DNA from: a virus | Lineage: Duplodnaviria > Caudoviricetes | IMG/VR virus record: IMGVR_UViG_3300032308_002516 | Location: 1-53,900 of that record | Length of the DNA: 53,900 nucleotides | Strand: one strand, 5' to 3' | Shown: piece after piece, positions 1 to 27,750 of the stretch | How positions within the stretch are numbered: position 1 is the first letter of the stretch | How the letters are laid out: each line of letters begins with the position of its first letter | Position numbers and translations under genes: made by a program | The notes under the pieces: model-generated | Told to the model about the DNA's origin: nothing | What the model saw: only the letters and a program-made list of their open reading frames with translations | The model's database searches: none

Positions 1-69
1 AAACTCAAAAATGGAGTAAAGTGGTTAGATACTCCGGAGCATCGGTCGATTAAAATAAACGGTCATTGA
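1..69 (+). CDS. 3' end of an upstream gene (partial)
   Basis: Frame 1 is open from base 1 (KLKNGVKWLDTPEHRSIKINGH) to TGA at 67-69 and overlaps the convergent gene, as at other junctions here. Confidence 0.35.
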   Translation, partial: KLKNGVKWLDTPEHRSIKINGH

Positions 70-700
70 GACTGATTTGTATAGCATCTCTTTGACCGTT
101 GATATTGTGAACACTGTGTAGTATTCTAGCATTTAGAATCACCCATCTTTCTTTTTCAAATTGTACTTCTTTTAATTTGATCATGTTTTTAAAAATATTT
201 GTGTAAACATTGCGATCTCGAATTATTGGATGACCGTTTTCTCTCCACCATATCGTTGTCTGATCGGCATTACTAACATCAAACAGATAAAGCAATAGGT
301 AATCCCTTGTGGTGTCGGTGTGAGGACCTAATACTTGGTCTTCTTCATTTTCCTTATGAGACGGTGCTATAGAAGCATCGATAAATCTATCAGTAATGTT
401 TTCTGATATCCATTGTTTGAATTTCTCGTTTACTGAAAAACGAACCACTGACCTACTTGTTATAGTTTTTCCGTGATCATTTAATTTCCTAAACATTTTA
501 TAAGAAATTTCTTTCTTTTCATCATCGACTTTTTGTACCCACTGTGATGTCAAAGATTGTAATTTTTTAGATTCCTCTAACTCAGCCCGTTTGATTCTAA
601 GAACATTTTTTGATTCTTCTAAAAACTTTTCAGGAACTTTGGGCAAGTCTAAATATCTATAGTACCAAATTTCTTCTTCTAGAGACATATTTTTTTCCAA
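50..700 (-). CDS. Putative 2OG/Fe(II)-dependent oxygenase (DSBH fold); ATG at 688 is an alternative start
   Basis: GPHTD...ILHSV...QRDAIQ gives HxD...H plus a distal Arg. Confidence 0.6.
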   Translation of the reverse strand: MEKNMSLEEEIWYYRYLDLPKVPEKFLEESKNVLRIKRAELEESKKLQSLTSQWVQKVDDEKKEISYKMFRKLNDHGKTITSRSVVRFSVNEKFKQWISENITDRFIDASIAPSHKENEEDQVLGPHTDTTRDYLLLYLFDVSNADQTTIWWRENGHPIIRDRNVYTNIFKNMIKLKEVQFEKERWVILNARILHSVHNINGQRDAIQISLNDRLF

Positions 701-764
701 TATATATATTTTAATTTATGCGAATTTTCAAAACCAGAATAAATTTGTTTGATAAAAAAACAAC

Positions 765-772
765 AATAAATA
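765..772 (+). promoter_or_regulatory. T4-late-like promoter AATAAATA
   Basis: 7 nt before ATG 780, with no Shine-Dalgarno (SD) between. Confidence 0.5.
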
Positions 773-779
773 TCATTCT

Positions 780-1637
780 ATGTTCTTAGCCCATAAATCA
801 GATCTTAAAATCAATTTTGCCAAACCATTGATACAATTTGACAAGAAAAAAATTTTAGTTAACAATCAAAGTTTGATGTTGTTAAACAATATCTGCCCTC
901 ATCAAGGAAGTCTTATCTTAACCGAACCCACAGACAAAATTAGCTGCAGATATCATGGCTGGACCTGGGATCATGCAGGTAGGCCTCTAAATTCCGGCAA
1001 TACTGAAATATGTAATAATTTTAATTTAGTTAAAAAAAATACCTACGAAATTAACGATTTAATTTTTACTGATCCTATTGATTTAGGATCAATCAAAGAA
1101 ATAGATTTTAGTTATATGACTCTAGTTGAATCCAGGGTAGATAGCGTACTTACTGATTACGGAAATATTATAGATGTATTTTTGGACGTAGATCATATAC
1201 CCATCGTTCATTCTTCTATATACGACAGCATAGGAGTGAAAAATGATGTTGAGTGGGTGTATTATGATTGGGGTAGCATTCAACTAGTTCATCAATCCAC
1301 TGACTATTCTGAAGAGTTCAAAGAAACATTAATAGGGATGCCTGATCAAAAATTAGCAGCAGTATGGATTACTGTATATCCATATACAACTATTGAATGG
1401 CAACCCGGAGCTTTGTTTATCAATGTATGTGTTCCTAGAAATGAATGTACTGATGTTTGTGTTTTCAAATACAGAGATAGTAGATATAGAGAAAATAATT
1501 GGAAGATAAATTCTGAGATATGGGAAACTGCCTGGTTACAAGATAAACAGCAAGCAGAATCAATAATAAACAGATCCATGTTTGATGCTCATCTAGAAAC
1601 CAGTAAGATACATTTTAGAAATTGGAATAAAAAATGA
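780..1637 (+). CDS. Rieske [2Fe-2S] non-heme iron oxygenase, alpha-subunit-like
   Basis: CPHQG...CRYHGW Rieske ligands; DVDHIPIVH and a C-terminal QD for the mononuclear Fe site. Confidence 0.85.
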   Translation: MFLAHKSDLKINFAKPLIQFDKKKILVNNQSLMLLNNICPHQGSLILTEPTDKISCRYHGWTWDHAGRPLNSGNTEICNNFNLVKKNTYEINDLIFTDPIDLGSIKEIDFSYMTLVESRVDSVLTDYGNIIDVFLDVDHIPIVHSSIYDSIGVKNDVEWVYYDWGSIQLVHQSTDYSEEFKETLIGMPDQKLAAVWITVYPYTTIEWQPGALFINVCVPRNECTDVCVFKYRDSRYRENNWKINSEIWETAWLQDKQQAESIINRSMFDAHLETSKIHFRNWNKK

Positions 1638-2557
1638 TTCACGGTTTTGAAAATGGAAAATTCTATATAGATTTTATTTCTTCTTCTAGACCCATAGGTA
1701 ATATGAGAGAGGAGGCTGACAGAAGGGCGTTAGAGATCGCCAAAGATAATCCAAAATGTATTTTGAGTTTCAGTGGGGGTATAGATAGCCAAAGTGTTCT
1801 GCATAGCTTTTACACACAAGGACTCCCATTAGAAACTGCATTTATGTTCTGTCCCGGATATAACGATAACGAGTACGAACAAGTTAAAATTCTAGACAAA
1901 AAATATAAAATTTCTACAGAAGTTATTACTATTGATCCCATGGCCTGCAGAGAAGAAATTGAATTTTTAAGTCTCGAATTAGATATACCGGGGAAAAATC
2001 ATTTACTACAAAGAAAATTTTTAAGTTATCTCCCACCCGATTATACTTTTATACAAATCGTACATGACCCTTTTGTCTATATCAATCCAGTTTCTAGAAA
2101 CAAATATTACTGTCAAGGTTATTATTGGCCGGAAATAGCTCGGCAAATAGCATTAGACTCACTAGGAAGGCCGGGAAGAAATATATTATACGGTGATACA
2201 TGGCAATTTTTAGCCAGCATTCTTAATGACGATATTTTTAAGTCGGCAATGATCTCCTCACAGTACTTTGATAACAACGGAGCTACTATTGCTGGAAAAG
2301 ATCTTCGTGGTGTGGATAGATGGGATTATTATATCAAACCCTTAATTTATGGAAAATATTGGAAAGACGAGTTGATCTATTTTACCAAGTATCGTGGGTT
2401 TGAATTAATACCATATCTTAATGATAAAACTCCTAAAATAAAGAAACACATGATAGCCTATCCCTATGAAGAAATTATTTCTTTTTTAACTTCTCAAAAA
2501 ACAGAAGTAAAAAGAGTTTACGAAAATGTAGATTATAATCTTTCGGAAATACTTTGA
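1634..2557 (+). CDS. PP-loop (adenine nucleotide alpha-hydrolase) protein
   Basis: LSFSGGIDS motif. Confidence 0.7.
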   Translation: MIHGFENGKFYIDFISSSRPIGNMREEADRRALEIAKDNPKCILSFSGGIDSQSVLHSFYTQGLPLETAFMFCPGYNDNEYEQVKILDKKYKISTEVITIDPMACREEIEFLSLELDIPGKNHLLQRKFLSYLPPDYTFIQIVHDPFVYINPVSRNKYYCQGYYWPEIARQIALDSLGRPGRNILYGDTWQFLASILNDDIFKSAMISSQYFDNNGATIAGKDLRGVDRWDYYIKPLIYGKYWKDELIYFTKYRGFELIPYLNDKTPKIKKHMIAYPYEEIISFLTSQKTEVKRVYENVDYNLSEIL

Positions 2558-3789
2558 TGAAAAATAAAATTGGATTTTACTATAAAGTCAAAGACAAAAT
2601 ATTTTACAATAAAATAGATGCGATCATGCATGCTAGTAAAACTTTAGACGATGTCTCTTGGCACTTTCACCAAGATATATTTGAAAAAATAAATTGGACT
2701 ATAGAACCGGATGCAGACTTAGATGAATTCTATAAAAATCGAGCCCAACAAATACGAGAAGAATATGACTATGTCGTAATTTTATGTAGCGGCGGAGCGG
2801 ATAGTACCAATGTCGTAAAGAGTTTTTTAAACAACGACATTTTTCCTGACGAAATCATAGCGGCAGCACCTATGTCTGGGCTAAACAACTTTGATTTCAA
2901 TACCAAGGATACTAGCCACATAAACACAATGTCCGAAACAAAGTATGCTCAACTTCCGTTGATGGACGAAATATCATCTAAATTTCCCAACGTTAAAATC
3001 ACACTCCATGATTATTTTCATGACATGTTAGATTATAAGTCGGAAGAATGGCTATATCAATGTGAAGATTGGGTTCATCCGTCTAGCCGTGCTAGATATA
3101 GATATGAAAGAATTCCACACTTGAAAAAAATAGCAGAGGCCGGCAAACGCATGGCATTTGTATACGGTATTGATAAACCAACATTAGCTGTAGATGATCA
3201 TACTGGGGATATCTATACTGTATTTGCTGACCTTCCTGTTAACGTTCAGAGATTACCGTTCGATAGGGATTATTTAAATGTAGATAACGTTTTATTTTAC
3301 TGGAATGGTCAATTACCTTTAATGATGGTCAAACAGGCACATCAGTTATCCAGATGGATTTTTAAACCGGAAAATATCAGAGCATTAAAATATCTAAGAA
3401 TACAAAGCAGAGCGTTGAAAACTTCCTGGGCCGAAAACCGATTCCGACATAGCCGATATGAGAGAGCAATAGTTCCCTGCATTTATCCCTCTACGCATAG
3501 ATCGATTTTCCAAGCAGAAAAGCCGATAAGCATTTTTCTAGGAGAACACGACGGTTGGTTCTATCAACTACATAACAAAACTATGCTTAATCAGATGATG
3601 GTATCAGATACCATTAGTTTTTTTAAAAAAATAAATCCTAAATATATTAATCCAGGAAATAACGGATTTCAAACTTTTATTAATTCTTATAAAATTGGAA
3701 AAGTTTCAGACTTTACAGAAAATCAAGATACCTTTAAGAGCATGCTAGATCTACCAGAGGTATTAGTATCTCGTTATTTTGATAGATAA
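2554..3789 (+). CDS. PP-loop ATP-pyrophosphatase-like protein, paralog of 21251..22498
   Basis: ILCSGGADSTN; long shared blocks with 21251..22498. Confidence 0.75.
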   Translation: MMKNKIGFYYKVKDKIFYNKIDAIMHASKTLDDVSWHFHQDIFEKINWTIEPDADLDEFYKNRAQQIREEYDYVVILCSGGADSTNVVKSFLNNDIFPDEIIAAAPMSGLNNFDFNTKDTSHINTMSETKYAQLPLMDEISSKFPNVKITLHDYFHDMLDYKSEEWLYQCEDWVHPSSRARYRYERIPHLKKIAEAGKRMAFVYGIDKPTLAVDDHTGDIYTVFADLPVNVQRLPFDRDYLNVDNVLFYWNGQLPLMMVKQAHQLSRWIFKPENIRALKYLRIQSRALKTSWAENRFRHSRYERAIVPCIYPSTHRSIFQAEKPISIFLGEHDGWFYQLHNKTMLNQMMVSDTISFFKKINPKYINPGNNGFQTFINSYKIGKVSDFTENQDTFKSMLDLPEVLVSRYFDR

Positions 3790-4397
3790 GTTCTGGTTAT
3801 CATCGGATTAGATTCATCTCTAGGGCCATCCTCGCTATCCGGATGGAATGCTACCAAGCTCATACTATGGTCCTGTGTTCTAAATCTATGTTTTGAAAAT
3901 CGATCTAATATAAAAATTGTTCCTGAAGATAATTCATAAATCTGATCATTAACATCTGCGAATCCCTGCCCAGATAGAACCATACCAATTCTCACGCTAG
4001 GATGAGTATGAAAAGTCTGATTTATTTCTGGAGGGAAAAAAAGATAATTAAGACAAGGATCCCCGTCTCTGGGAGCCGGTATCACACAAGAATTAGAACA
4101 TCCGTCTATGTAACTCAGGTTACCCGGAGATAAAGTATTTAAAAGTGTTAGAATTTCTTCATTCATATTGAATCCAAGTAATTCTATAATAACACCTTTC
4201 CCTTCTACTTCAAATCCTTGATTGAGAGAAGCAGATATTTTTCCTTTTCCGGAAATCGAATCTCCTCGTATTTCACCGTCACAGATTATCATTCGAGTTA
4301 TAGATTGATTTTTAAATGATCGAGTACCATTCAAAATTTTAATACTCAAGCGGTGTCGATCAAAAATGTCTGTATCTTGTGTGATAAATCTAATCAT
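3774..4397 (-). CDS. Cupin-domain protein
   Basis: QTFHTHPSVRIG...SGQG...KHRFRT cupin motifs. Confidence 0.7.
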   Translation of the reverse strand: MIRFITQDTDIFDRHRLSIKILNGTRSFKNQSITRMIICDGEIRGDSISGKGKISASLNQGFEVEGKGVIIELLGFNMNEEILTLLNTLSPGNLSYIDGCSNSCVIPAPRDGDPCLNYLFFPPEINQTFHTHPSVRIGMVLSGQGFADVNDQIYELSSGTIFILDRFSKHRFRTQDHSMSLVAFHPDSEDGPRDESNPMITRTYLSK

Positions 4398-4401
4398 ACA
4401 T

Positions 4402-4434
4402 TATTTATCAGTGGGTGTTTTTCCTCTATAAATA
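4402..4434. promoter_or_regulatory. Back-to-back late-type promoters: GATAAATA on minus (4402-4409), TATAAATA on plus (4427-4434)
   Basis: The plus box is the exact T4 gp55 consensus; the minus box is 4 nt from the ATG at 4397. Confidence 0.7.
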
Positions 4435-4454
4435 TCCGACAGAAATCAAATTAT

Positions 4455-5918
4455 ATGGATATAGTATTATTAACCGCGTGTGTCGGCAAAGAATTTAAAC
4501 TTTTCAGAACTCTAGGAACTTATCAAATCGCATGGTATCTTCGTAACTTTGATTATTCTGTGCAGGTGATAGATTTTATACATAAATTTTCTGAAGAGCA
4601 AATTTGGAAATTGATCGAAAAATATGTAAACGATAAAACAAAAATTGTCGGATACAGCCCAATGATAGATTTTCCGGAACACGGAGAATACAACAATAAG
4701 ATCGAAAGAATATTATTACGTATCAAAAAGAAATTTCCACAGATAAAAATCGTAGCAGGGGGTGCCTCAGCACAGGCGTTTGTTAAGAAATATAGAAATA
4801 AAAGTTTATTTGATGTTATTTTTATGGGACATGCCGAAGATACAATGTTGGCTTTCTGTAACCATATATTTAGAGGGGCCGCACCCCTGGCATATGAAAA
4901 AATCGAGGGAAATGTTGTAATTAGAGAAAATATTCCTCTTCCTCAGATATTTGAAAAATTTGATATTAAAAAATGTACACACACGTGGAGCCAAAATGAT
5001 TTTATACAACCGAGAGAGACTTTGCCGATAGAACTCGGAAGAGGGTGTGTATTTGCCTGTAAATTTTGTCAATATCCTTATATAGGAAAATCTAAAAACG
5101 ATTTTACTAGAGAAATGGAATTAATAAAAGAAGAAATACTTAGAAATTACCAGCAGTTCGGAACAACTCGTTATTACATGGTCGACGATACTTTTAATGC
5201 TGATAGAACACGATTAAAAGAATTTACAGAGATGGTAAAAACTTTACCTTTTGATCTTCAATACGCAGCATATCTAAGACTTGATTTAATTCATAAATGG
5301 TCGGAGCAGGAAGATCTCCTTCCAGAATCGGGATTAGTTAGTTGTTTTTTTGGAATAGAGAGCTTTAATCAAGAAGCAGCAGATTTAGTTGGAAAAGGGT
5401 GGCAAAACAAAAAAGTAAAAGATTATCTTCCTGATCTTTATCATAATAAATGGAAGAGAAAAATTTCTCCGAGACTTGGATTAATTTGCGGACTTCCGCC
5501 TGAAACATTTAATGAAATGTTTGATACCCATAATTGGTTAGTAGAAAATAAATTACCTAGCTGGTATTGGGCGCATCTCCAGATCAATCGTGATAAAATT
5601 AACTCATACACTTCGGAATTCGAAAGAAATGCAGAAAAATATGGTTTTTCTTTCGAAAGCGATAATGGTAGGGTTATCTGGAAACATAGCTTATACAACG
5701 AAAGACAGACCGAAGACATGGCAACCACTCTAAATAATTTGTCTAAGCCTTACACCACCCCTAGCTGGATGCCCCTTTTAGAATTAGGCAATTATACAGA
5801 CGATATAAATCTTTATAGAGTAACGGCCCATGATAGTATAGATTGGAATCCAATACGTCAAGGAAGGCTCAATTTCCTAAAAAATTACTATACCCAACTG
5901 TTAAATCAAAATATCTAA
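4455..5918 (+). CDS. Cobalamin-binding-domain radical SAM enzyme; start moved from 4353 to ATG 4455
   Basis: ELGRGCVFACKFC (CxxxCxxC), VDDTFN, FFGIES, GLPPET; N-terminal B12-binding-like domain (IVAGG); promoter lies at 4427. Confidence 0.85.
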   Translation: MDIVLLTACVGKEFKLFRTLGTYQIAWYLRNFDYSVQVIDFIHKFSEEQIWKLIEKYVNDKTKIVGYSPMIDFPEHGEYNNKIERILLRIKKKFPQIKIVAGGASAQAFVKKYRNKSLFDVIFMGHAEDTMLAFCNHIFRGAAPLAYEKIEGNVVIRENIPLPQIFEKFDIKKCTHTWSQNDFIQPRETLPIELGRGCVFACKFCQYPYIGKSKNDFTREMELIKEEILRNYQQFGTTRYYMVDDTFNADRTRLKEFTEMVKTLPFDLQYAAYLRLDLIHKWSEQEDLLPESGLVSCFFGIESFNQEAADLVGKGWQNKKVKDYLPDLYHNKWKRKISPRLGLICGLPPETFNEMFDTHNWLVENKLPSWYWAHLQINRDKINSYTSEFERNAEKYGFSFESDNGRVIWKHSLYNERQTEDMATTLNNLSKPYTTPSWMPLLELGNYTDDINLYRVTAHDSIDWNPIRQGRLNFLKNYYTQLLNQNI

Positions 5919-6706
5919 TTATGCATAAATTGGGATCTGTGATTTTGAATAATATCGGCAACCGAATCCCATAATTCGATTCGAGCTCTAAGAGCTTCAA
6001 TGGCGGCTTGTTCAGCTTCATGTATGTGGACAGGATCGTGATCACAAAGGTCCTGTACTAAAGAAATACTAGCCGGACCATGCTCCTCACTATCTATTTC
6101 TATGTGGCGTTCTAAATAATAATAAAATTTAGGACAATCGATTTTAGAAATATTTAAATTACTGGATAAATTTTGAAACATTTGCGGTATAATAGTTTCT
6201 CTACCAAAACAAAAAGCAGCAGCAATTATATGAGGTTCACCAGTATCAATAAATTTAAATGTTTTTTTTACAAATTTTAAACTAGCGTCGGGAATACTCA
6301 CTTCTTCTATCGCAGAATATACTCCCTGGTCTTTGACAGCTTCCACCCATTTTTCTATAGTGTTAGCATCGGCTCCAACTTCTAACATCGCTTGACAGTA
6401 TAGATCGTGGTGAGCTATACTGTTTATACCGTCTATATCTAGATCACTTTCTTCTGCTAACACGATTTCATTTATGAGTCTAGCTGCACCGCTTCTGATA
6501 TTTCTAGTCGGTATCCAGCAATTTGTACTTGGACAAATATGATTTTGTAGACTCTTTAGAAGACACATAAAATCCCAAACCGCAAAAACATGATGCTCCA
6601 TGAATATATGAAGATCGGTGATATCTTTAATGACATTTCCGACCAATAAAGGATGCTGTTCTAATTGGTTTTTTAACTGATTAATTTTCGTTAGAGGCAA
6701 GATCAT
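5915..6706 (-). CDS. DUF3050 heme-oxygenase-like (HDO superfamily) protein
   Basis: FMEHHVFAVWDFMCLLKSLQ, INEIVLAEESD, FGRE, YLERHIEID..EHGP. Confidence 0.85.
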   Translation of the reverse strand: MILPLTKINQLKNQLEQHPLLVGNVIKDITDLHIFMEHHVFAVWDFMCLLKSLQNHICPSTNCWIPTRNIRSGAARLINEIVLAEESDLDIDGINSIAHHDLYCQAMLEVGADANTIEKWVEAVKDQGVYSAIEEVSIPDASLKFVKKTFKFIDTGEPHIIAAAFCFGRETIIPQMFQNLSSNLNISKIDCPKFYYYLERHIEIDSEEHGPASISLVQDLCDHDPVHIHEAEQAAIEALRARIELWDSVADIIQNHRSQFMHN

Positions 6707-7209
6707 GATAGCGGATTTTCATTTACACACATCACTATGTGGATTCTATCACTATCTCCACCATTGATAAATGTGTGCTTTTTAGTAGTGTTGGTCCAAT
6801 AAACGAATCCCGCAGGCAATCTTTTACATTGAGAAAAGTGAGGCCATATCATCCAACATTCGTCATTGGTCGTTATAGGAATGTGAATTCTCGGTGTGGG
6901 ATCAGCATGAACTGAGTACATCTTATTCGGGGGCATGATCATTATCCTTGTTCTAAAACCATTATGCTTTTGAATCAACTTTTCGATAATAGTGTTAGAC
7001 AAGCTGGCATGGATGTTGATATATTCTTTTTCTTCTCGAATATCTAACTCTTCAATCCTTCCAGTTCCAATGTCCCAATCATCTAAACCTTCTGTTAAAC
7101 CTTGACAGATTAATTGAAGTTTGCCCTGCCCGTAATTTTTAACAATTTCAAAAACTTCATTTTGTAAATTTTCAAAATCTTCAATTTTGTACAATGGATC
7201 TAATAACAT
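6703..7209 (-). CDS. Asp/Asn beta-hydroxylase-like 2OG/Fe(II) oxygenase
   Basis: SVHADPTPRIHIPI...KKHTFINGG..DRIHIV. Confidence 0.75.
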   Translation of the reverse strand: MLLDPLYKIEDFENLQNEVFEIVKNYGQGKLQLICQGLTEGLDDWDIGTGRIEELDIREEKEYINIHASLSNTIIEKLIQKHNGFRTRIMIMPPNKMYSVHADPTPRIHIPITTNDECWMIWPHFSQCKRLPAGFVYWTNTTKKHTFINGGDSDRIHIVMCVNENPLS

Positions 7210-7266
7210 GGTAATTTTTATTTATTTAGGAGCATAGGCATAAATTAATTTACTGTTCTGGTGAAG

Positions 7267-7295
7267 TTGACAATTTGGATTTTTGATGTTATAAT
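7267..7295 (+). promoter_or_regulatory. Consensus sigma70 (early) promoter
   Basis: TTGACA-17 nt-TATAAT with extended TG; SD AGGAGG near 7310. Confidence 0.9.
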
Positions 7296-7320
7296 ATAAC
7301 TATATAGAAAGGAGGGCAAG

Positions 7321-7926: not shown

Positions 7927-7943
7927 TATTAACTACGCAGTTT

Positions 7944-9966: not shown

Positions 9967-9970
9967 GCCA

Positions 9971-19178: not shown

Positions 19179-19194
19179 AATAAGTAAGATACCT

Positions 19195-20469: not shown

Positions 20470-21251
20470 AAAACAAATTATATTCTATTGATGTTTTTGA
20501 CGATATCGTTTCCAAAGAAACACAACTTAAAGTCGAAAAATATTTAGAAGATCAAACTTGGCACATCCAATGGATGCCCTTGCCCGCACTTCCGAAAAAA
20601 TTAAATAGATTTAAACCGAAGGATGGGTTATCCGGTCCGCTATCATCTTGGCCTATTGTGCAGTCTACTACTTTCGCAAGATGCTGTTTAGCTAGAGACG
20701 AGGATCATTTAAAGAATAAACATTATCTGATATGGAAGCTCTGGCAAGAAATAAATGCTGGCCTTAACAACGAATACGAAATCACAGGATACCCAGAAGA
20801 TATGTTCGATGAAGAATATTCCAAAGAACACGGAATAGACGGTTGGGGTTGGAGAGTTTATGTCAACGGATTATATGGCAGAATAACCACTGGCACTTGG
20901 GGAGCGCACAGAGATACTCCCGACCTAACTGATGAATCCAGCGTTACAATTTTATACTTCGTTAATCCAGAGTGGTATCCTAGGTGGAGTGGCGAAATTG
21001 TTTTTTACCCTGACGATTTAGAAGGATCTTCGGGAGATCATCAACAATTTAATGTTGGAGATCATCAACAGCAAAGAAATTACAATGTAGGCTGGGCTGA
21101 TCAAGGAAAGCTGGTCAGTCCGGTTCCTAATAGAGTAGTAGTATTCGACGGTAGATGCTTACATAATTGTCAGCCGCCGTCGACACCAGAAGGCGCTAGA
21201 TCAAAGCCGTTGTGGCGTGTGGTTTTTAGAGCTAGAAAAAAGGTAAAATAA
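20466..21251 (+). CDS. Prolyl-4-hydroxylase-like 2OG/Fe(II) oxygenase
   Basis: GAHRD...TILYFVNPEW...WSGE...PVPNRVVVFDGRCLH...WRVVFR. Confidence 0.85.
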   Translation: MKNKLYSIDVFDDIVSKETQLKVEKYLEDQTWHIQWMPLPALPKKLNRFKPKDGLSGPLSSWPIVQSTTFARCCLARDEDHLKNKHYLIWKLWQEINAGLNNEYEITGYPEDMFDEEYSKEHGIDGWGWRVYVNGLYGRITTGTWGAHRDTPDLTDESSVTILYFVNPEWYPRWSGEIVFYPDDLEGSSGDHQQFNVGDHQQQRNYNVGWADQGKLVSPVPNRVVVFDGRCLHNCQPPSTPEGARSKPLWRVVFRARKKVK

Positions 21252-22498
21252 TGTTAGACGATTTAGGATTTTATACTGTAGGCACTGAAAAATTTTACGA
21301 AAAAATTCCTGCGATGTTCAGAGCGCAGCAATTAAAAACAGAAATGTCTTGGAATTTTAATGACGAAATTTTTTCTAAAGTAGATTGGACAAAGGAACCT
21401 TCCGAGTCTTTAGATGAGCTGTATGCTAAAAGAGCAAAACAGATAAGAGAAGAATACGATTATGTTCTTCTTTTCTGTAGTGGTGGCGCCGATAGTACAA
21501 ATATGTTTTATGCCTTTGTCAACAATGGTTTACATGTCGATGAAGTAGTAGGAAGCGCACCTATATCTGGATTAAGAGATTGGAAAAGTAATCCAACCGA
21601 TCAACGAGTAGAAAACACTATAGATGAAACTTTTCACACACAAATACCTTGGTTGAAAAAAATTGAAACTCAATTCCCTAAAACAAAAGTAACTCTTCAT
21701 GATTATTTTGATGATATGCTGGAATATAAAGCCGACGATTGGCTTTTAAAAGGAAACGATTGGATGCATCCAACTATGGCCGGTCGGTATAATCTAGATC
21801 GTTATATTCATCTGAAACGCATAGCAGAATCAGGTAAAAAAATTGCCGTGGTTCAAGGCATAGACAAACCAAAAATTTACAGGCACAAAGATAATTTTTA
21901 TCTTGTTTTTGTAGACAACGTATATAACAACAAGTACGATTCTGTAAATCACCCTAATACCAATCCGGTGTTCTTTTATCATTCGCCGCAGCTACCGCAG
22001 TTGATAATAAAACAGGCACACGTTACAGCTAGTTTTCTCATGAAACCAGAAAATAAAAGCATATATGATGTTATGCCGGGAAACGACGAACGTGCTCTTG
22101 GAAAAGATTTAAAGATATCAGCTCTAATGAATCCACCAAATCCTGGAATTTACGAAAGAGGAATAGTTCCGGCAATATATCCGGCAATTAAAAAAATATC
22201 ATTCCAAGCAGGAAAACCAGATCGAATGTTCTTAGGTAAACACGACGATTGGTTTTATCAACTTCACAAAGATATTAGAATATGGGATATGATGCAGTCA
22301 GACTTGGCTAATCTAATCAGATCATTAGATCCCAAATTTTTACTTAATGATCAATATCGTGGATTATTAGGATTTAGATACTGGAGAAAATATTATAAGA
22401 TTGGACCAGTGTCGAATTTTTTATCAAATCCGTTGAATATCCTATTAGATAGCAACAAAAATAAATCTCCGATAGAAAATATTGACGATGTGAAATGA
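21251..22498 (+). CDS. PP-loop ATP-pyrophosphatase-like protein, paralog of 2554..3789
   Basis: LFCSGGADSTN, GIDKP, KQAH. Confidence 0.75.
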   Translation: MLDDLGFYTVGTEKFYEKIPAMFRAQQLKTEMSWNFNDEIFSKVDWTKEPSESLDELYAKRAKQIREEYDYVLLFCSGGADSTNMFYAFVNNGLHVDEVVGSAPISGLRDWKSNPTDQRVENTIDETFHTQIPWLKKIETQFPKTKVTLHDYFDDMLEYKADDWLLKGNDWMHPTMAGRYNLDRYIHLKRIAESGKKIAVVQGIDKPKIYRHKDNFYLVFVDNVYNNKYDSVNHPNTNPVFFYHSPQLPQLIIKQAHVTASFLMKPENKSIYDVMPGNDERALGKDLKISALMNPPNPGIYERGIVPAIYPAIKKISFQAGKPDRMFLGKHDDWFYQLHKDIRIWDMMQSDLANLIRSLDPKFLLNDQYRGLLGFRYWRKYYKIGPVSNFLSNPLNILLDSNKNKSPIENIDDVK

Positions 22499-23040
22499 TG
22501 AATTATCACATATATGAGATACACGATCTTTCCGATCAAAAGATAGTTGAACTTTTAAAAAAAAGTATCTCGGATAAAATGTTTGATAATCCTGATATTT
22601 GTAGAAATTATCTGTACGAATACCGAAACGATTCAGCTAATTTATTTTATATTTTAAAAAACGGTAGATATCGTCAAGGAGCATATTTTGTAATAACAGA
22701 CTTTGATAATAATTTTATCGCTAGTGCAGGATGGAATGAATATGATTCCGATACAGCACTTATATTAACAAGAATGATAGTCCAGCCCGAACATCGTGCG
22801 AAGTATATTATAGGTAATCATTTATTGCCAAAAATCATAGAACAAACCAAAGACTATAAAAAGGTGTGGATCACAGCTAACAATTATAATAAATCTATAT
22901 ACACCTGGTTCGAAAGATCAAATCAAGGTAAATCTGCTTCGCTTAGTAAAAGATGGCCAGATCTATATAAAAATTTCGAACCGATCGGTCAACACACTGT
23001 CTATAATACCTTACAATGGGTCGTCCAATTAAAAAAATAA
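22495..23040 (+). CDS. GNAT-fold acyltransferase-like protein
   Basis: FIASAGW...ILTRMIVQPEHRAK...ITANNYN pattern. Confidence 0.55.
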   Translation: MMNYHIYEIHDLSDQKIVELLKKSISDKMFDNPDICRNYLYEYRNDSANLFYILKNGRYRQGAYFVITDFDNNFIASAGWNEYDSDTALILTRMIVQPEHRAKYIIGNHLLPKIIEQTKDYKKVWITANNYNKSIYTWFERSNQGKSASLSKRWPDLYKNFEPIGQHTVYNTLQWVVQLKK

Positions 23041-23047
23041 ATATTCG

Positions 23048-23866
23048 ATGTTAAAAAAAATATCCAAAGCATTTTATTTTATCTTCATTCCTAAAATATC
23101 TCTAGCTATAATCACGGTAATTTTATTGGCTGTCGGAATAATTCCTCTATATTATCTGTGGTTCACGCTATTCATGTGGATTATGGTTTGCGGACTTGGC
23201 ATAGCTTGCGGATATCACAGAATTTTCAGTCATAAAACTCACGACATTCCCAGATGGAAAGAGAATATCATTTTGTTTTTTGCTGTGTTTGCTGGGCAGG
23301 GACCAAGTATTTTTTGGGTCGCCGCCCATAGAGGATATCATCATCCGCATGCCGACAAGGACAAAGATCTACACAGTCCAGTAGTTAAAGGTTATTGGCA
23401 TGCCTTTTACGGGTGGATTAAACAAATAACAGAATCTAACGTGGTAGTTAATATAAAATATTCCTCAGACCTAATGCGTAAATCTAATCATGTTTGGTTT
23501 TTTAATAACTACATGAAAATTTTATGGGGCGTTCCTTTATTGTTATGTTTGATAGATTGGAAACTAGCTTTTACTGGATTTTTTCTTGTTACGGGATTTT
23601 TCGGTGTGATACAAGACAACTTGATAAACGTGTTCGGTCACCAAAAAATGTTAGTAGGATATAGGAATTTTAAGACAGACGATAATTCACATAATAATCC
23701 CATCATGGGGTTGATAACTTGGGGACAGGGTTGGCATAATAATCACCACCATGCTCCCGGAAATTATGACTTCGGAAAAGGAACATCGGGAAAATGGTGG
23801 GAGTTTGATCCCTGCATATTATTTCTACCCTTTGTAGGAAAAGGAAAAAATTACCAATCTCGTTGA
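23048..23866 (+). CDS. Delta-9-type fatty acid (acyl-CoA) desaturase
   Basis: His boxes GYHRIFSH, HRGYHH, WHNNHH; hydrophobic helices; DKDLHSP. Confidence 0.93.
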   Translation: MLKKISKAFYFIFIPKISLAIITVILLAVGIIPLYYLWFTLFMWIMVCGLGIACGYHRIFSHKTHDIPRWKENIILFFAVFAGQGPSIFWVAAHRGYHHPHADKDKDLHSPVVKGYWHAFYGWIKQITESNVVVNIKYSSDLMRKSNHVWFFNNYMKILWGVPLLLCLIDWKLAFTGFFLVTGFFGVIQDNLINVFGHQKMLVGYRNFKTDDNSHNNPIMGLITWGQGWHNNHHHAPGNYDFGKGTSGKWWEFDPCILFLPFVGKGKNYQSR

Positions 23867-25104
23867 AATCGAGATATATGATACCTTATGTATTCTTGTA
23901 CATCCAAGTCGTCTATACTTAATAAGTTATAGTCGCTATCTAAGCCAAATCTAGCATTAGGCTTAAGCCTATCCGGAAGATCACTAACATCCTGATGATA
24001 CATAACATTTGGACCTAAGCTTCCGAGTTTAAGTTTAAAAAAATAATACCAATCGTTTTTGTCTAAGTCGTGTATGTATTTTCTAGCAGCCATTTTATAA
24101 GTAGTAGGTCCGTATAGGATTTTTTCCCCGTTATTATTATTGACCATCGACCATTTTTGATATTCCACGCTTGCGAACCAGTTAATGGCCCAATCATTAA
24201 TCACTGTGCCGTAGTCTAGTTTATCATTTAAAAAAACAGAAATCCTAACAGCACAACTTACCCATTTAATATTAAACAAGACCCACCAATAGTAATCGTG
24301 TAGGCTTTGAATAGGAACTGTAGAAGTTTTGATATTCTTTTCAAATTTATCATACCACGATTCCCCCAAATAAGGACACTGTGGAGTAGACCAATGTTTT
24401 ATGATCAAATCCTTATATTCTGAATAATGAACATCAGGTGAGGCCATTTTACTTTGTATATTAAGTAAATGATTTCTAGAGTTAGGCGATACTTTATCTA
24501 GATAAAATTCATAATTTTGCTGTAATTCTAAGAAGCTCATAGTTCCGAATATACAATCGCCTTCATCAGCAGTGATGGGTCTTAATCCTAGATTTATAAG
24601 GGAATCATATTTGTACTGTGCTGAATCATATATTTGAAACTTGTTCCAAATAAACTTCTTCCAAAATATAGGATTTTCTATCATAGAGTGTCCATTGGCA
24701 CATACACTGACATTTTTGATCTCTTCTTGAGTTAGATTCTTAATCAATGCTGCCATTATCACAGTACTATCAAATCCTCCTGAATACATGACTACAAATT
24801 TTTGATTTTTATTTTTAATTAGGTCAGCAATTTCTCTAGCACGTAAATCTGAAACTTCGTCGAATGATTTATTAAAAACAGGATCATACTCTGGCATTTC
24901 AAAACCAGGTGGAATTTCCTGTGGCCATGCCATAGACCATTCTCCATTCCTACTAACGAATCTCTGTGGTTTATATAGGGTGCTGAGATCTAATATAAAC
25001 TTTCCACCCGATCCCGCATCCTCACGAAGACTATCCCAAAAATCTTGCTGATAATAATTGTAGGTTATACCGCTTAGATATAAAACTGAATTTTTTGATA
25101 ACAT
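23851..25104 (-). CDS. PP-loop / asparagine-synthetase-like protein
   Basis: VMYSGGFDST; ITADEGDCIFG resembles the AsnB SGEGADE motif. Confidence 0.7.
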   Translation of the reverse strand: MLSKNSVLYLSGITYNYYQQDFWDSLREDAGSGGKFILDLSTLYKPQRFVSRNGEWSMAWPQEIPPGFEMPEYDPVFNKSFDEVSDLRAREIADLIKNKNQKFVVMYSGGFDSTVIMAALIKNLTQEEIKNVSVCANGHSMIENPIFWKKFIWNKFQIYDSAQYKYDSLINLGLRPITADEGDCIFGTMSFLELQQNYEFYLDKVSPNSRNHLLNIQSKMASPDVHYSEYKDLIIKHWSTPQCPYLGESWYDKFEKNIKTSTVPIQSLHDYYWWVLFNIKWVSCAVRISVFLNDKLDYGTVINDWAINWFASVEYQKWSMVNNNNGEKILYGPTTYKMAARKYIHDLDKNDWYYFFKLKLGSLGPNVMYHQDVSDLPDRLKPNARFGLDSDYNLLSIDDLDVQEYIRYHISRFQRDW

Positions 25105-25105
25105 G

Positions 25106-25906
25106 TCAGACTACCCATGTTGTTTGATTATTTCGATGTTTTACAAATCCTGCCGGGCCTAGTTTTTTTAGTTCGCTAGGTTCTTCGATTCCCATGATAA
25201 GGTAAAACAGTTGCCTTGTATCTGACGGGTCGTTTTTAGAATGTTCTAACCAAGCATTATTAATCGATACCATGGCGGAATCGATAGAATCAGATTCATA
25301 TAAAATTGTTTTGATTAAATTAATAATTCCTTGCTCTGCAGAAGTATTATCATGATAAATTTTAAAATCTTTAGGAAATTGATCATGGAAAAAAACATCT
25401 AGGTATTCTTTTTCTGGAAAAAAGTTTTTGAAATTTACAGATAAAGTTATTGCGTATAAGGTTCTCAAAGAAAATAAGGCATATTCTTGTAATCTAAGAA
25501 GTATATCTTTTCTAGGTTCCTCAACAAAATCTACAGGCCAGCCTTTTTCTATAATGATATTCTTTGGTATTTTTGATAGAGATGCTGACTGCCTGTGTGC
25601 CATGACTATAGGACTACCGTATCCCTTTTCATCTTTTTTATGTCTGGTGGAAAAATTTAAACAATTTTCATTATTCATGTCCGGTGTAACTTGATCTAGC
25701 ACATAAACTATGTTCGAAACTTTAGAAGATAAAACTTTACCTGTTTCATAAATCATCCAGGGATCGTAATTGTCAATAATAAGAAACCGGTCTACCCCTG
25801 GGGAAAAAATTGCGTAACTATTTTTTTTATTCCAACTTAACGGATAAAAGGTTTTATGAAACCCATCTACGGCATCTAACCATGGTTTTTTAGTGTATCT
25901 ATTCAT
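25106..25906 (-). CDS. Hypothetical protein
   Basis: 266-aa ORF behind a TATAAATA box, abutting the downstream gene. Confidence 0.75.
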   Translation of the reverse strand: MNRYTKKPWLDAVDGFHKTFYPLSWNKKNSYAIFSPGVDRFLIIDNYDPWMIYETGKVLSSKVSNIVYVLDQVTPDMNNENCLNFSTRHKKDEKGYGSPIVMAHRQSASLSKIPKNIIIEKGWPVDFVEEPRKDILLRLQEYALFSLRTLYAITLSVNFKNFFPEKEYLDVFFHDQFPKDFKIYHDNTSAEQGIINLIKTILYESDSIDSAMVSINNAWLEHSKNDPSDTRQLFYLIMGIEEPSELKKLGPAGFVKHRNNQTTWVV

Positions 25907-25913
25907 TGCGTTT

Positions 25914-25944
25914 TATTTATACGGTGGTTTTCTTACTATAAATA
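25914..25944. promoter_or_regulatory. Back-to-back perfect TATAAATA late promoters
   Basis: TATTTATA at 25914-25921 and TATAAATA at 25937-25944; same 15-nt gap as at 14034-14064. Confidence 0.8.
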
Positions 25945-25954
25945 TTTTTCCAAA

Positions 25955-27418
25955 ATGTCAATTATGTTTAATAATCTTGGAAAAATTATTTCCCCGTTAT
26001 GTGATCTTGAAAAGGTTGCAGTAATCGATCTCAGTAATGCATCTCGATCTTATACATATAAGCAGGTAGATCAACAAGCAGATGCTGTAGCACGTGGCTT
26101 GGCTACAAAAAATATCAACGTAGGCGAAAAAATTTCCATACTTTCAGACAATTCTGTAGATGTAATTTCTGTTTTTTTCGGGACATTAAGACTAGGCGCT
26201 ATTCCTGTATTGATTAATACTAATTTTTCAGACGAACAGATTAAAATTATCTTGTCAGAAACGAACAGCAAAATATTATTTGTTGACAGAGATAAAAAAT
26301 TCGATATACCCACTATTCATTTTAACAGCGACTTTAAAGAATTTTTGAACTACGGAAGTTTAGATTGTTATAAAACAAAAGAAGATGATATAGCTTTTAT
26401 TTTGTATACTTCAGGAACTCACGGAAGTCCAAAAGCAGCTTGTATAACTCATCGGGGTCATATTTGGGCCTTAGAACGAAATATATCATATGATAAAAAT
26501 TCTTCAGAAAGAATTTCTTTAATATCTGCTCCATTATATCACTCCAATGGGCTGTCTACCTTCGAGGGATCGTTTGCTGGAAATTCTCAAATTATTCTAC
26601 TTCCTAAATTTAATCCCTTGGGCTGTATAAAAGCTATAGAAAAATATCAGGTAAACACCATGTACTGTGTTCCGTCAATGCTTGCTATGATAATTCGTGA
26701 GGATTATATCAAACAAGCCAATTTAAATTCATTGAAATTAATTAGATCAGCATCATCACATTTCAGTCAAAATTTGTTTGATTCTGTAAAAAAATATTTC
26801 CCAAATGCTAATGTTCTTAATAGCTACGGACTCACTGAAGTTGGGCCGGCATTATTTGGACCACACCCAGATAAGATACCGAGACCAGTTACCAGCGTAG
26901 GGTATCCAGCTAAGGGTATCGAATACCGAATCGTAGATGGTGTTCTACAAATCAAAAGTCCTAGTATGATGTATTCGTATTATCATAGTCAAAATAATAC
27001 GAATTCATTTACAGATGACGGATTTTTTATTACCAACGATTTATTCACAGTAGATGAACATGGATTTTATTATTTTTTAGGAAGAAACGACGACATGTTT
27101 AAATGCGGAGGGAACAGCGTATTTCCTAAAAAAGTTGAAGAAATCTTAGAAAGTCATCCTTCTGTAATTTCTGCTGTTGTATTAGGATTTGAGGATGAAA
27201 TCAAAGGTCATAAGCCCTACGCTTTTGTTATTGTAGAAAATCACAAATCCGTCAGCGAAAAGGAGCTTAAAAAGTACGTTCTAGATCGCGGCCCCGCATT
27301 TCAACACCCTAGAAAAATATGGTTTTTGGACGAGTTTCCGCTGCTCGCAGGAAACAAGATCGACAAAGAAAAACTCAAAATTCTATATAAAAATGAGATC
27401 ACAGCACAATTAAGGTGA
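25955..27418 (+). CDS. AMP-forming acyl-CoA synthetase / adenylate-forming enzyme
   Basis: YTSGTHGSPK, PLYHSNG, SYGLTE, GRNDD, GNKIDK. Confidence 0.93.
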   Translation: MSIMFNNLGKIISPLCDLEKVAVIDLSNASRSYTYKQVDQQADAVARGLATKNINVGEKISILSDNSVDVISVFFGTLRLGAIPVLINTNFSDEQIKIILSETNSKILFVDRDKKFDIPTIHFNSDFKEFLNYGSLDCYKTKEDDIAFILYTSGTHGSPKAACITHRGHIWALERNISYDKNSSERISLISAPLYHSNGLSTFEGSFAGNSQIILLPKFNPLGCIKAIEKYQVNTMYCVPSMLAMIIREDYIKQANLNSLKLIRSASSHFSQNLFDSVKKYFPNANVLNSYGLTEVGPALFGPHPDKIPRPVTSVGYPAKGIEYRIVDGVLQIKSPSMMYSYYHSQNNTNSFTDDGFFITNDLFTVDEHGFYYFLGRNDDMFKCGGNSVFPKKVEEILESHPSVISAVVLGFEDEIKGHKPYAFVIVENHKSVSEKELKKYVLDRGPAFQHPRKIWFLDEFPLLAGNKIDKEKLKILYKNEITAQLR

Positions 27419-27450
27419 AAAAATTAATAAATACCAAAAGGAGAATTCTC

Positions 27451-27750
27451 ATGTCGTACATGTACAAGACAAGGACCATTAAGCCAGAAAATGAAAAATG
27501 GTATCCGGATGTTGAACCTGTAAAACACGCTGATTTTATGAAATGGTTTAAATCATATCCAGGAGTTGTCAGCTTTCAAAACAGAAGAGAAAGCGAAAAT
27601 GAGCATATAAGATGGGTTGAATTTTCCGATCAAGAGTCTTACGAAAGATTCATAGTTGAAAGAAATCAAAGAGAAGATTATATCGAAAGGCAGCAGTGGT
27701 TAGAATCTCACGGATTTATCGTAGAAGTTCTGGCTTATCCTAAAAACTAA
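27451..27750 (+). CDS. Small hypothetical protein, possibly dimeric alpha/beta barrel; start at ATG 27451
   Basis: AATAAATA near 27426 and GGAG SD near 27440; RWVEFSDQESYERF pattern. Confidence 0.6.
   Translation: MSYMYKTRTIKPENEKWYPDVEPVKHADFMKWFKSYPGVVSFQNRRESENEHIRWVEFSDQESYERFIVERNQREDYIERQQWLESHGFIVEVLAYPKN

Follow-up and report, generated by a model that had tools for sequence, protein, structure and literature searches.

Auxiliary genes of phages are usually borrowed host genes that boost known pathways. T4-like cyanophages carry such genes in hyperplastic regions with multiple 2-oxoglutarate (2OG)-Fe(II) oxygenases and late NATAAATA promoters. The stretch analysed here, referred to below as the window, is an entire IMG/VR virus record of 53,900 bases (IMGVR_UViG_3300032308_002516), and positions 50-27,750 of it form an island of genes for PP-loop proteins, oxygenases, solute-binding proteins and other tailoring-type enzymes. 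The island is a genuine accessory (hyperplastic) region of a T4-like freshwater phage. Instead of one pathway it contains a patchwork of small cassettes, which are met again in hundreds of contigs from related phages. We put the chances at about even that these cassettes bind, activate, amidate and oxidatively tailor small carboxylic acids.

In a full-text literature search, covering main texts, no account of an island of this kind came up. None of the island's families was found by term look-up in the main texts of PMC7674155 and PMC4360716, and in PMC6359870 a tctA domain on SUP05 viral contigs is the sole related mention.

Conserved gene linkage in related loci

The two long PP-loop proteins of the island, o04 and o26, served to collect related loci. 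An alignment-based profile of this family had 83 matches in IMG/VR, from which 75 loci were kept; a single-protein pattern scan of the same database gave none. Co-directional adjacency of gene families was then compared, over 62 non-identical architectures (1,524 genes), with 1000 within-locus shuffles. Long PP-loop genes lie beside genes for TctC-type solute-binding proteins 31 times, against a shuffled mean of 6.4. An ATP-grasp gene precedes the long PP-loop 10 times (10 of 11 cases, mean 0.49), a Rieske gene precedes a short PP-loop 7 times (7 of 9, mean 0.36), and o30 precedes the third PP-loop type, PP417, in 4 of 4 cases (mean 0.15). For none of these four pairs was a value as high seen in the 1000 shuffles. 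The order acetyltransferase (GNAT) then desaturase was observed 6 times against 1.7, with 3 of the 1000 shuffles as high, and adjacency of the small protein o32 to the long PP-loop was not enriched (5 against 4.6).

An earlier sequence-only reading of this DNA had treated the genes as a linked set. The linkage is kept in relatives, as the ATP-grasp, Rieske and TctC pairings above show, in the form of sub-modules and not at random. Loci L027, L029, L032 and L034 share longer blocks, for example o30-PP417-TctC-DctP-short PP-loop-desaturase-ATP-grasp-long PP-loop, and in these four loci o26 has relatives of 61-77% identity. In a quick maximum-likelihood tree of 92 long PP-loops, which groups o26 with the ATP-grasp-linked copies, the label "TctC neighbour" has to change 18 times for 29 rows, and supported branches force at least 14 of these changes. 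The adjacency is scattered over the tree and is therefore not one inherited arrangement. Tblastn relatives of 24 of the 32 island open reading frames (ORFs) were found in the 75 loci. The same reading had envisaged a single activate/ligate/oxidise/acylate assembly line; this part of it does not hold, as relatives share modules of two to ten genes in many combinations and the other 8 of the 32 ORFs have no tblastn relative there.

PP-loop proteins and the ATP-grasp ligase

The count of six PP-loop proteins given earlier stands: SGGxDS is present in o03, o04, o11, o23, o26 and o29 (Table 1), iterated profiles link all of them, and two are confirmed by fold. The paralogues o04 and o26 are 43% identical, and S78, G79, G80, D82 and S83 are invariant in 29 sequences. 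On the predicted models of o04 and o29, the long PP-loops (o04/o26) and o29 fold like the synthetase domain of AsnB without its glutaminase domain. With the AlphaFold2 (AF2) model of o04 (pLDDT 92.5), the top five of an exhaustive VIA structure search were AsnB (1ct9, Z 12.0, root-mean-square deviation 4.8 over 282 aa), ASNS (10.4), beta-lactam synthetase (9.7), TsnB9 (9.2) and carbapenam synthetase (8.1). Alignments to the AsnB family span 268-286 residues, and generic PP-loop enzymes score around 7. The o29 model, with a pLDDT of only 72, matched beta-lactam synthetase 1jgt (Z 11.1), ASNS 9b6c (11.0), TsnB9 7ylz (10.5) and 1q15 (9.0). By Pfam, no GATase (N-terminal Ntn glutaminase) domain is present in the 410-417-aa proteins o04, o26 and o29. 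A PDB profile search with the long PP-loop alignment gave 0 matches at E <=1, so that the likeness to AsnB came to light through the exhaustive VIA comparison alone, and none of the 120 listed long PP-loop homologues has a precomputed Pfam domain. PADLOC, applied to 10 of the 32 island proteins, had as its sole match DndC, at 17.8 bits, on the P-loop of o29.

For the short PP-loops (family A4) the best profile match is NH3-dependent NAD synthetase (3.4e-7). Relatives of o23 occur in 30 loci, and o03 is 42-43% identical to genes in L037 and L032. The sixth protein, o11, matches QueC in Pfam at 2.9e-11 over residues 133-188 only, reaches 33.7 bits with TIGR00364 (cut-off 150), and has a weak likeness to Asn_synthase (18.4 bits, cut-off 21). 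Sulfur transfer of the LarE/TtuA type was considered for the PP-loops and rejected as unlikely, because none of the families A1, A4 and A5 has an invariant Cys.

The ATP-grasp protein o24 matches 7lvo at 8.9e-21, and TIGR00877 aligns with it over 1-420 of its 425 positions at 97.4 bits (cut-off 288). With scores this far below the curated cut-offs of TIGR00877 and TIGR00364, true PurD and QueC identities were discarded for o24 and o11, respectively. The PP417 partner o30 belongs to no family in Pfam, NCBIfam or PADLOC; each of its 3 relatives has a PP417 gene directly after it.

In database representation, the long and 417-aa PP-loops are almost confined to viruses. The long PP-loop family has 1,606 representatives (50% identity) at E <=1e-3 among 1.84 billion, and none of the best 150 is longer than 451 aa. 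Among 185,579 species genomes it was found on just 2 contigs of metagenome-assembled genomes, of 3 and 9 kb, and tblastn with o26 gave 0 matches in 50,697 GenBank phage records.

Solute-binding proteins

Two solute-binding proteins, both absent from the earlier summary of the island, lie side by side. o21 is a clear member of the DctP family of tripartite ATP-independent periplasmic (TRAP) binding proteins (PF03480 1.5e-51, 175.9 bits against a cut-off of 23.4; 4p47 8.1e-34). Arg152 and Arg173 of 4P47 hold the ligand carboxylate (PMC11668362). They align with R137 and R157 of o21, the latter at least 90% conserved, and Ser197 takes the place of Asn213. The solved structures closest to o21 have galacturonate, glucuronate, 2-keto-3-deoxygluconate (KDG), pantoate, erythronate and isethionate as ligands. 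A hydrophobic N-terminus is lacking in 16 of 16 DctP-type homologues from the loci and in 120 of the 120 best database homologues. These best 120 clusters are 81-96% identical to o21 and 314-330 aa long, far above the conservation of the neighbouring enzymes.

o22 resembles the TctC/Bug-type proteins of tripartite tricarboxylate transporters (TTT), with 23.7 bits for TctC (cut-off 27), 1.1e-5 for 4x9t (UPF0065) and 0.01 for a terephthalate-binding protein. By eye, it and all 45 listed TctC-type relatives have a signal-peptide-like N-terminus of the MKK...hydrophobic...A type. Bug proteins hold carboxylates with a PGGxxD loop, which was not used as evidence here. Pfam and NCBIfam scans detected no DctQ or DctM family in the window, which is part of an incomplete genome. 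A complex prediction for o26 with o21 (score 0.02, mark 0.32) speaks neither for nor against pairing.

A binding-protein gene beside the first enzyme gene is the usual layout of bacterial uptake and catabolic operons, and exported TctC-type proteins require a host permease. The beta-keto acid cleavage enzyme (BKACE), the short-chain dehydrogenase/reductase (SDR) and the acyl-CoA ligase of the island are catabolic types, and module content differs strongly among relatives. The island might accordingly serve auxiliary catabolism or scavenging, in which binding proteins widen the organic-acid uptake of the host and the enzymes feed central metabolism or nitrogen pools for replication, with no dedicated product. 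We regard this as unlikely. Cellular genomes contain next to no members of the core PP-loop families, which are therefore not host-derived metabolic genes, amide synthesis would use up ATP and nitrogen and release neither, and the ATP-grasp, GNAT, radical S-adenosylmethionine (SAM) and ABM-fold partners are biosynthetic types. Moreover, a signal-less DctP protein cannot serve uptake.

Oxygenases and lipid-type enzymes

Nine oxygenases with an HxD...H motif had been proposed. The motif is present in all nine, and five of them (o01, o08, o16, o17 and o18) form one 2OG family, A2; o25 is weak and o12, o13 and o15 have the motif only. In an alignment of 70 A2 sequences, H101 and H145 are the only invariant residues and D103 is at least 90% conserved. 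The A2 profile matches the 2OG beta-hydroxylase Cpz10 (7v4f, 2.9e-14) and L-proline cis-4-hydroxylase (4p7w, 4.9e-10), and 11 of the 70 members match Pfam Asp_Arg_Hydrox at E <=0.01. The intermediate that Cpz10 hydroxylates is an aminoacyl-glycyluridine, and 7V4F holds the enzyme with its small-molecule product (PMC9814697). Within the family, o08 is the reference row (Asp_Arg_Hydrox 22.5 bits, cut-off 22.6), o17 was reached from seed o08 at 9e-12 (hhalign 97%), and o01 is tied to o18, o16 and o08 by iterated profile (hhalign to A2 99.4% probability). Up to 8 paralogues occur in a single 21-kb locus (L030), compared with 5 in the window. For o12, o13, o15 and o25, hhalign to A2 gave 0.6-12.8%; the first three have no Pfam match at E 10, and o25 scores 26.3 bits with 2OG-FeII_Oxy_3, just under the cut-off of 27. 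o12 has no Pfam or PHROG match, and only viral proteins are among its Atlas neighbours, one cluster of which carries DUF6445 on 13-14% of its members.

The desaturase o28 (FA_desaturase 3e-13) has three His boxes (HRIFSH, HRGYHH, HNNHHH), 4 hydrophobic segments and relatives in 28 loci. Positions 1-16000 of the 20-kb locus L009 hold nine desaturase-like paralogues, a massive local expansion of this membrane di-iron family. The GNAT assignment of the neighbouring o27 is backed at the level of its family A8 (Acetyltransf_1 in 5 of 16 members; top PDB profile matches all GNATs, from 3.8e-4), with no firm match for the single protein. The ligase o31 combines AMP-binding (1.2e-60) with AMP-binding_C and is FadD/MenE-like, every match being below cut-off.

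The Asp_Arg_Hydrox family includes lipid A and ornithine-lipid hydroxylases. Desaturases, LpxO/OlsC-like hydroxylases, a GNAT N-acyltransferase and an acyl-CoA ligase could thus be imagined to rebuild host lipids or lipid A late in infection, for example as aminolipids with amide-linked head groups. The His boxes and 4 membrane segments of o28, the up to 9 desaturase paralogues of L009, the GNAT-desaturase adjacency (6 against 1.7, 3 of 1000 shuffles as high) and the FadD-like o31 fit such envelope remodelling. We nevertheless consider it improbable: the AspH-like proteins lack membrane segments, the best match to them among solved structures is a soluble hydroxylase of nucleoside-antibiotic synthesis, and the six PP-loops, the PurD-like ligase and the binding proteins would be left unexplained.

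Gene content of the island

The island comprises 32 non-nested ORFs, selected from 74 of at least 80 aa in the window. As noted before, the genes are tightly packed and AT-rich: the coding fraction is 0.976, the largest gap is 111 nt, and the mean gene GC content is 0.347, compared with 0.403 in 22 downstream genes.

Table 1. ORFs of the island, with coordinates in the window, predicted family, and motifs, matches or upstream boxes.
ORF	Position	Strand	Length (aa)	Assignment	Motifs, matches and boxes
o01	50..700	-	216	AspH/Cpz10-like Fe(II)/2OG oxygenase	HTD127...H195; no Pfam match of its own
o02	780..1637	+	285	compact Rieske non-haem iron oxygenase	TAAATA 767-772
o03	1634..2557	+	307	short PP-loop ATP pyrophosphatase, family A4	SGGIDS at residue 47
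o04	2554..3789	+	410-411	long PP-loop, predicted stand-alone AsnB-type synthetase domain	SGGADS
o05	3774..4397	-	207	cupin	Cupin_2 29.7 bits (cut-off 27.2); TAAATA 4402-4407 (minus strand)
o06	4455..5918	+	487	class-B (B12-binding) radical SAM	CxxxCxxC; TATAAATA 4427-4434
o07	5915..6706	-	263	DUF3050 (haem-oxygenase-like fold family)	PF11251 1.3e-82
o08	6703..7209	-	168	AspH/Cpz10-like 2OG hydroxylase	two overlapping TAAATA boxes 7219-7228 (minus strand)
o09	7321..7926	+	201	metallophosphoesterase, PdeM-like	Metallophos; PdeM 36 bits, below cut-off
o10	8018..9376	+		tail-fibre-like protein	Mtd_N N-terminus 2e-11; TAAATA 7980-7985
o11	9373..9966	-	197	QueC-like PP-loop	SGGLDS at residue 15, CGQCFQC; TAAATA 9971-9976 (minus strand)
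o12	9996..10712	+	238	virus-only family, possible cupin	HND101...H141; TAAATA 9981-9986
o13	10706..11452	+	248		HRD133...H196 motif only; no relative in loci
o14	11436..12260	+	274	no assigned family	N-terminal GDS only
o15	12257..12802	+	181		HVD75...H140 motif only
o16	12783..13352	+	189	AspH/Cpz10-like 2OG oxygenase	iterated profile, A2 row
o17	13330..14028	-	232	AspH/Cpz10-like 2OG oxygenase	TATAAATA 14034-14041 (minus strand)
o18	14069..14626	+	185	AspH/Cpz10-like 2OG oxygenase	opens o18-o19-o20 unit; TATAAATA 14057-14064
o19	14636..15379	+	247	SDR	adh_short_C2 5e-39
o20	15376..16254	+	292	BKACE	PF05853 1.2e-89
o21	16295..17242	-	315	DctP-family (TRAP) binding protein without signal peptide	
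o22	17316..18209	-	297	exported TctC/Bug-type (TTT) solute-binding protein	
o23	18303..19178	+	291	short PP-loop ATP pyrophosphatase, family A4 (first row)	SGGVDS; TAAATA 18290-18295
o24	19102..20469	+		PurD-like ATP-grasp ligase	GARS_A 8.5e-17; homologues align from residue 29-32
o25	20466..21251	+	261	probable 2OG-Fe(II) oxygenase	HRD148...H192
o26	21251..22498	+	415	long PP-loop, predicted AsnB-type synthetase domain, paralogue of o04	SGGADS
o27	22495..23040	+	181	GNAT-type acyltransferase, family-level support	Acetyltransf_7 E 0.021
o28	23048..23866	+	272	membrane di-iron desaturase/hydroxylase	TAAATA 23038-23043
o29	23851..25104	-	417	third PP-loop type (PP417), AsnB-synthetase-like	SGGFDS
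o30	25106..25906	-	266	unassigned, obligate upstream partner of PP417	TATAAATA 25914-25921 (minus strand)
o31	25955..27418	+	487	acyl-CoA (AMP-forming) ligase	TATAAATA 25937-25944
o32	27415..27750	+	~99 (from Met13)	ABM/Dabb-fold small protein, virus-only family	

Most of the gene list drawn up from the letters alone is upheld. The Rieske, cupin, B12-radical SAM, DUF3050, ATP-grasp, desaturase, acyl-CoA ligase, SDR and BKACE assignments are supported by Pfam/NCBIfam models and motifs, a tail-fibre gene (o10, Mtd_N) does sit inside the island, and Pfam/NCBIfam scans of the 32 ORFs found no non-ribosomal peptide synthetase (NRPS), polyketide synthase (PKS) or replication family. An SGNH assignment of o14 had to be dropped, since the protein has an N-terminal GDS alone, without DxxH, and no Pfam match even at E 10. 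In addition to the two solute-binding proteins, the ABM-fold protein o32 and the metallophosphoesterase o09 were new to the list. PHROGs returned 0 families for ten island ORFs of unknown family, and Pfam at E 10 gave only noise for o01, o12-o18, o27 and o30, save the weak GNAT match.

The Rieske protein o02 (Pfam 2.4e-8, 34.2 bits) has CPH...CRYH and DVDHIPIVH motifs, and cupins of the o05 type adjoin the long PP-loop in L006, L009 and L037. o06 matches Radical_SAM at 1.1e-10 and class-B radical SAM families; its B12-binding score is 23.7 bits (cut-off 32.1), and the 81.8 bits with the PhpK family are far below cut-off. The SDR o19 is 47% identical to a gene that in L027 stands beside a BKACE gene. 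For o20, which has 62% identity in L027, a true Kce identity was rejected at 236.8 bits, under the curated Kce cut-off of 382. The Atlas model of o32 (pLDDT 0.91) resembles ABM, Dabb and SnoaL clusters (TM-score 0.68-0.78), and its nearest feature clusters are 100% viral; o32 has 35 distinct relatives in the loci, its best PDB profile match being IsdI at no better than E 0.1.

Neither a scaffold-forming core enzyme (NRPS, PKS, terpene synthase) nor a precursor gene for a ribosomally synthesised and post-translationally modified peptide (RiPP) was found among the 32 ORFs. A RiPP cluster was rejected because gaps of <=111 nt leave no space for a precursor gene and o32 is a folded ABM-type domain.

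Promoters and transcription units

The hexamer TAAATA is the commonest of the upstream regions. Sixteen of its 45 sites lie 0-35 nt upstream of a sense-strand start codon, where 1.8% of positions qualify (binomial P 5e-17), and three further boxes (o06, o10, o21) were recognised through start correction or a longer range. The start of o06 was corrected to ATG 4455, 20 nt after TATAAATA, in agreement with homologues aligning from residue 35, and that of o10 to ATG 8018 behind AGGAG, 32 nt after its TAAATA box. The longer TATAAATA is not enriched in the window (6 found, 7.9 expected), and 6 of 6 are just upstream of gene starts. With the consensus (T)(A)TAAATA, boxes precede 14 transcription units of the island, often back to back between divergent genes, and also the tail-fibre-like o10 and the 2858-aa o53, which is followed by the gp7-like o54. 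The proposal that the cassettes start at a T4-late-type box is thus confirmed, by its positional enrichment, by the 14 island units and by its sharing with structural genes. No listed RNA run holds positions 14,000-23,900, and we therefore infer a late timing of island expression from the motif only. No gp55/gp33-type late sigma factor was noted among the families of the window, which covers 15% of the genome and in which no search was aimed at it.

Some units stand apart. o21 is self-contained, with its own TATAAATA at 17302-17309, a 5' hairpin at 17276-17299 and a terminator at 16280-16255. o09 has the sole perfect (12/12) sigma-70 promoter of the first 20 kb, TTGACA-N17-TATAAT at 7267-7295, a strong Shine-Dalgarno sequence and a terminator at 7944-7965; its GC content is 0.48 and its relatives are 87-89% identical. 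This gene is probably early and unrelated to the tailoring set. Perfect sigma-70 promoters are similarly located upstream of o37 (30495) and o40 (32883). A bidirectional terminator-like hairpin of 8 pairs (6 GC) at 9441-9459 lies inside the 3' coding end of o11, where it overlaps the Cys-rich motif, 65 nt after the stop codon of o10.

The island shares its late-type promoters with structural genes, and the tail-fibre-like gene has homologues at island borders in L003/L006/L036 and L007/L031. Modification of macromolecules during morphogenesis, favoured by the sequence-only reading, could mean decoration of virion proteins or glycans or hypermodification of DNA or tRNA; for example, Asp/Glu side chains or uronic acids might be amidated or hydroxylated, or amines attached to bases. 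Pfam Asp_Arg_Hydrox includes protein hydroxylases, o11 is QueC-like, QueD and a glycosyltransferase are encoded near the island, outside 50-27,750, and uronate binders are among the nearest solved relatives of o21. However, Pfam/NCBIfam scans detected no DNA-binding, RNA-binding, glycosyltransferase or protein-recognition domain inside the island, the closest solved relatives of every enzyme class use free small molecules, and the shuffle test gave the strongest linkage for exported solute-binding proteins, a class without a role in virion assembly. The gaps, too, leave no space for precursor peptides. The evidence for a link to morphogenesis and virion decoration comes down to the promoter type and the neighbouring tail-fibre gene, and this explanation seems to us quite unlikely.

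Phage identity and integrity of the contig

The source phage belongs to an uncultured lineage of very large T4-like freshwater phages. The record has a completeness rating of 15%, and the full genome is therefore estimated at roughly 360 kb; the contigs of close relatives measure 95-236 kb and have completeness ratings of 25-66%. The right half of the window codes for baseplate and tail-fibre proteins of the T4 type. Among them, o54 (1093 aa) gave matches to baseplate-wedge PHROGs at 2e-139 and shares 34% identity with gp7-like proteins of T4-like Synechococcus phages. The virion protein o53 (2858 aa) and the gp7-like baseplate wedge o54 follow each other at 41451-53308 and are alike at their N-termini (36% over 61 aa). 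Megablast of the first 25 kb against the 50,697 GenBank phage records gave no DNA match.

The GC content of the island is 5-6 points below that of the structural region, so that the AT-rich block might be suspected to be misjoined host or foreign DNA, or a chance run of ORFs. In the independent contigs L007 and L031, however, island-type genes are joined to the ThyX-QueD phage block that they also adjoin in the window, and run X1, possibly the source sample, has contigs that tile 14.8-32 kb with an even depth of 5-9 over the island/core junction. On these two grounds the contig is not a chimera with host DNA. In addition, near-identical short pieces of island and core are present in freshwater-metagenome-labelled runs of other studies, 75 viral loci carry families of the island, the same TAAATA box is in use on both sides of the junction, and 97.6% of the region is coding. 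Runs X2-X4 leave parts of the window without cover and speak neither for nor against integrity. An artefact is extremely improbable.

Outside the island, a tRNA-like RNA and a preQ1 riboswitch suggested at 27796-27941 and 35618-35695 were not recovered: over the whole window, ARAGORN found no tRNA and Rfam no match at the gathering threshold. o39 (32076-32621, 181 aa) and o33 (28056-28748, 230 aa) have no family match and recur at the edges of related islands, in 17 and 11 loci, respectively. A 128-aa protein encoded at 40413-40799 is 80-85% identical in L019, L021 and L024; it is IscU/NifU-like by eye only, and such a candidate would suit the many Fe and Fe-S enzymes of the island.

A proposed chemistry of small carboxylic acids

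That the region is a phage island of tailoring-type enzymes, as the sequence-only reading had it, is confirmed by gene families, promoter box and linkage. As to its function, a chemistry of small carboxylic acids suggests itself because two families of carboxylate receptors accompany enzymes that activate carboxylates in three ways (AsnB-type PP-loops, PurD-like ATP-grasp, acyl-CoA ligase), a unit for cleavage of beta-keto acids, and hydroxylases whose closest relatives use amino-acid-like small molecules. The nearest characterised relatives are all small-molecule enzymes (AsnB, beta-lactam synthetase, TsnB9, PurD, Cpz10, proline hydroxylases, Kce and acyl-CoA ligases), and the long PP-loop has an exported binding protein of carboxylate type as its strongest conserved partner. 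Small-molecule carboxylate chemistry is therefore favoured over modification of protein, glycan or DNA.

According to this proposal, T4-late-type TAAATA promoters, located 2-32 nt ahead of start codons, would drive nearly the whole island. The exported TctC/Bug-type and the signal-less, arginine-intact DctP-type proteins would bind carboxylate-bearing small molecules, the former presumably feeding a host TTT permease. In a second step, o04, o26, o29, o24, o31 and probably o03/o23 might activate the carboxylates as acyl-adenylates or acyl-phosphates, which would be joined to ammonia or an amine to give amides (or converted into a thioester). Tailoring could follow by the five Cpz10/AspH-like hydroxylases, o25, the Rieske protein, the membrane desaturase and DUF3050, with contributions from the class-B radical SAM, GNAT and ABM-fold proteins. 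Finally, the o18-SDR-BKACE unit would hydroxylate, oxidise and cleave a beta-keto acid.

Several observations weigh against the carboxylate proposal. The likeness in fold does not prove amide formation. Foldseek of o04 against PDB gave nothing at E <=1e-3 and only the generic PP-loop core, and o04, o26 and o29 have no match to Pfam Asn_synthase (PF00733) at E 0.01. There is no DctQM or TctAB partner within the 54 kb covered, o22 is not adjacent to a long PP-loop in this window, and adjacency of the long PP-loop to DctP is not enriched in the loci (4 against 2.6, 256 of 1000 shuffles as high). As for the linkage counts, choosing the loci via the long PP-loop biases co-occurrence, and kinship inflates the numbers, since related loci are not independent. 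The ORFs without a tblastn relative in the 75 loci are o07, o11-o15, o17 and o18, and for this reason the oxygenase block of six genes may be cargo unrelated to the rest. The late timing is read from the promoter motif and nothing else, and gp55 was not seen in the same 54 kb, in which no search was aimed at it. Peptides (in the case of lasso cyclases) and precursors of the cell wall or O-antigen are further substrates of AsnB-type enzymes, so that the target may instead be a macromolecule or the envelope.

A more far-reaching version would be a virus-exclusive secondary metabolism, in which TctC receptors and host permeases harvest specific exogenous acids, a rapidly diversifying set of glutaminase-less AsnB-type synthetases, the PurD-like ligase and iron oxygenases turns them into amide-linked metabolites, and the conserved, signal-less and probably highly expressed DctP acts as a cytoplasmic carrier or sponge for the key carboxylate. 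We offer this as a speculation that is doubtful in its full extent. If it were true, a TRAP binding protein working inside the cell would be unprecedented. The signal-less DctP clade (120 clusters, 81-96%) provides a testable case of a transporter receptor re-used in the cytoplasm. More generally, the core enzyme families are large and almost absent from cells and from every cultured phage, yet they stand in conserved co-directional modules with binding proteins. Should the modules turn out to make or edit small molecules, giant phages would possess a private chemistry of their own, with new amide-forming enzymes and possibly new metabolites that influence the physiology of hosts or competition in lakes.

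Comparison with known systems

With T4-like cyanophages the locus shares the baseplate genes, the placing of AT-rich accessory genes as a block between conserved modules, a number of small 2OG oxygenases and the TAAATA box. In contrast to them, it lacks a megablast match (first 25 kb) or tblastn match (o26) in the GenBank phage records, and the genome is estimated at ~360 kb, whereas theirs are 170-250 kb. Cultured phages are also without the PP-loop/ATP-grasp/binding-protein core of the island.

Bacterial TTT and TRAP uptake operons likewise have a binding-protein gene directly beside an enzyme gene in the same direction, the TctC types of the island are exported, and its DctP type keeps the carboxylate-binding arginines. 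Unlike these operons, the window is without membrane components, the partner enzyme is a predicted virus-only amide synthetase, and the DctP type is signal-less and 81-96% conserved.

The A2 proteins have the HxD...H triad of Cpz10 and L-proline cis-4-hydroxylase and are small and soluble (170-230 aa); they differ in that just 11 of 70 members match Asp_Arg_Hydrox and that 5 paralogues occur in the window. The closest counterpart of the core enzymes is the synthetase domain of AsnB, with beta-lactam and carbapenam synthetase and TsnB9, which o04 and o29 resemble in SGGxDS and in whole-domain fold and with which they would be expected to share the route from carboxylate through acyl-adenylate to amide. 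The PP-loops of the island differ from this family in their length of ~410 aa without an N-terminal glutaminase domain, at ~10% sequence identity, and in being almost confined to viruses, present as several paralogues per phage, and paired with binding proteins or a PurD-like ligase.

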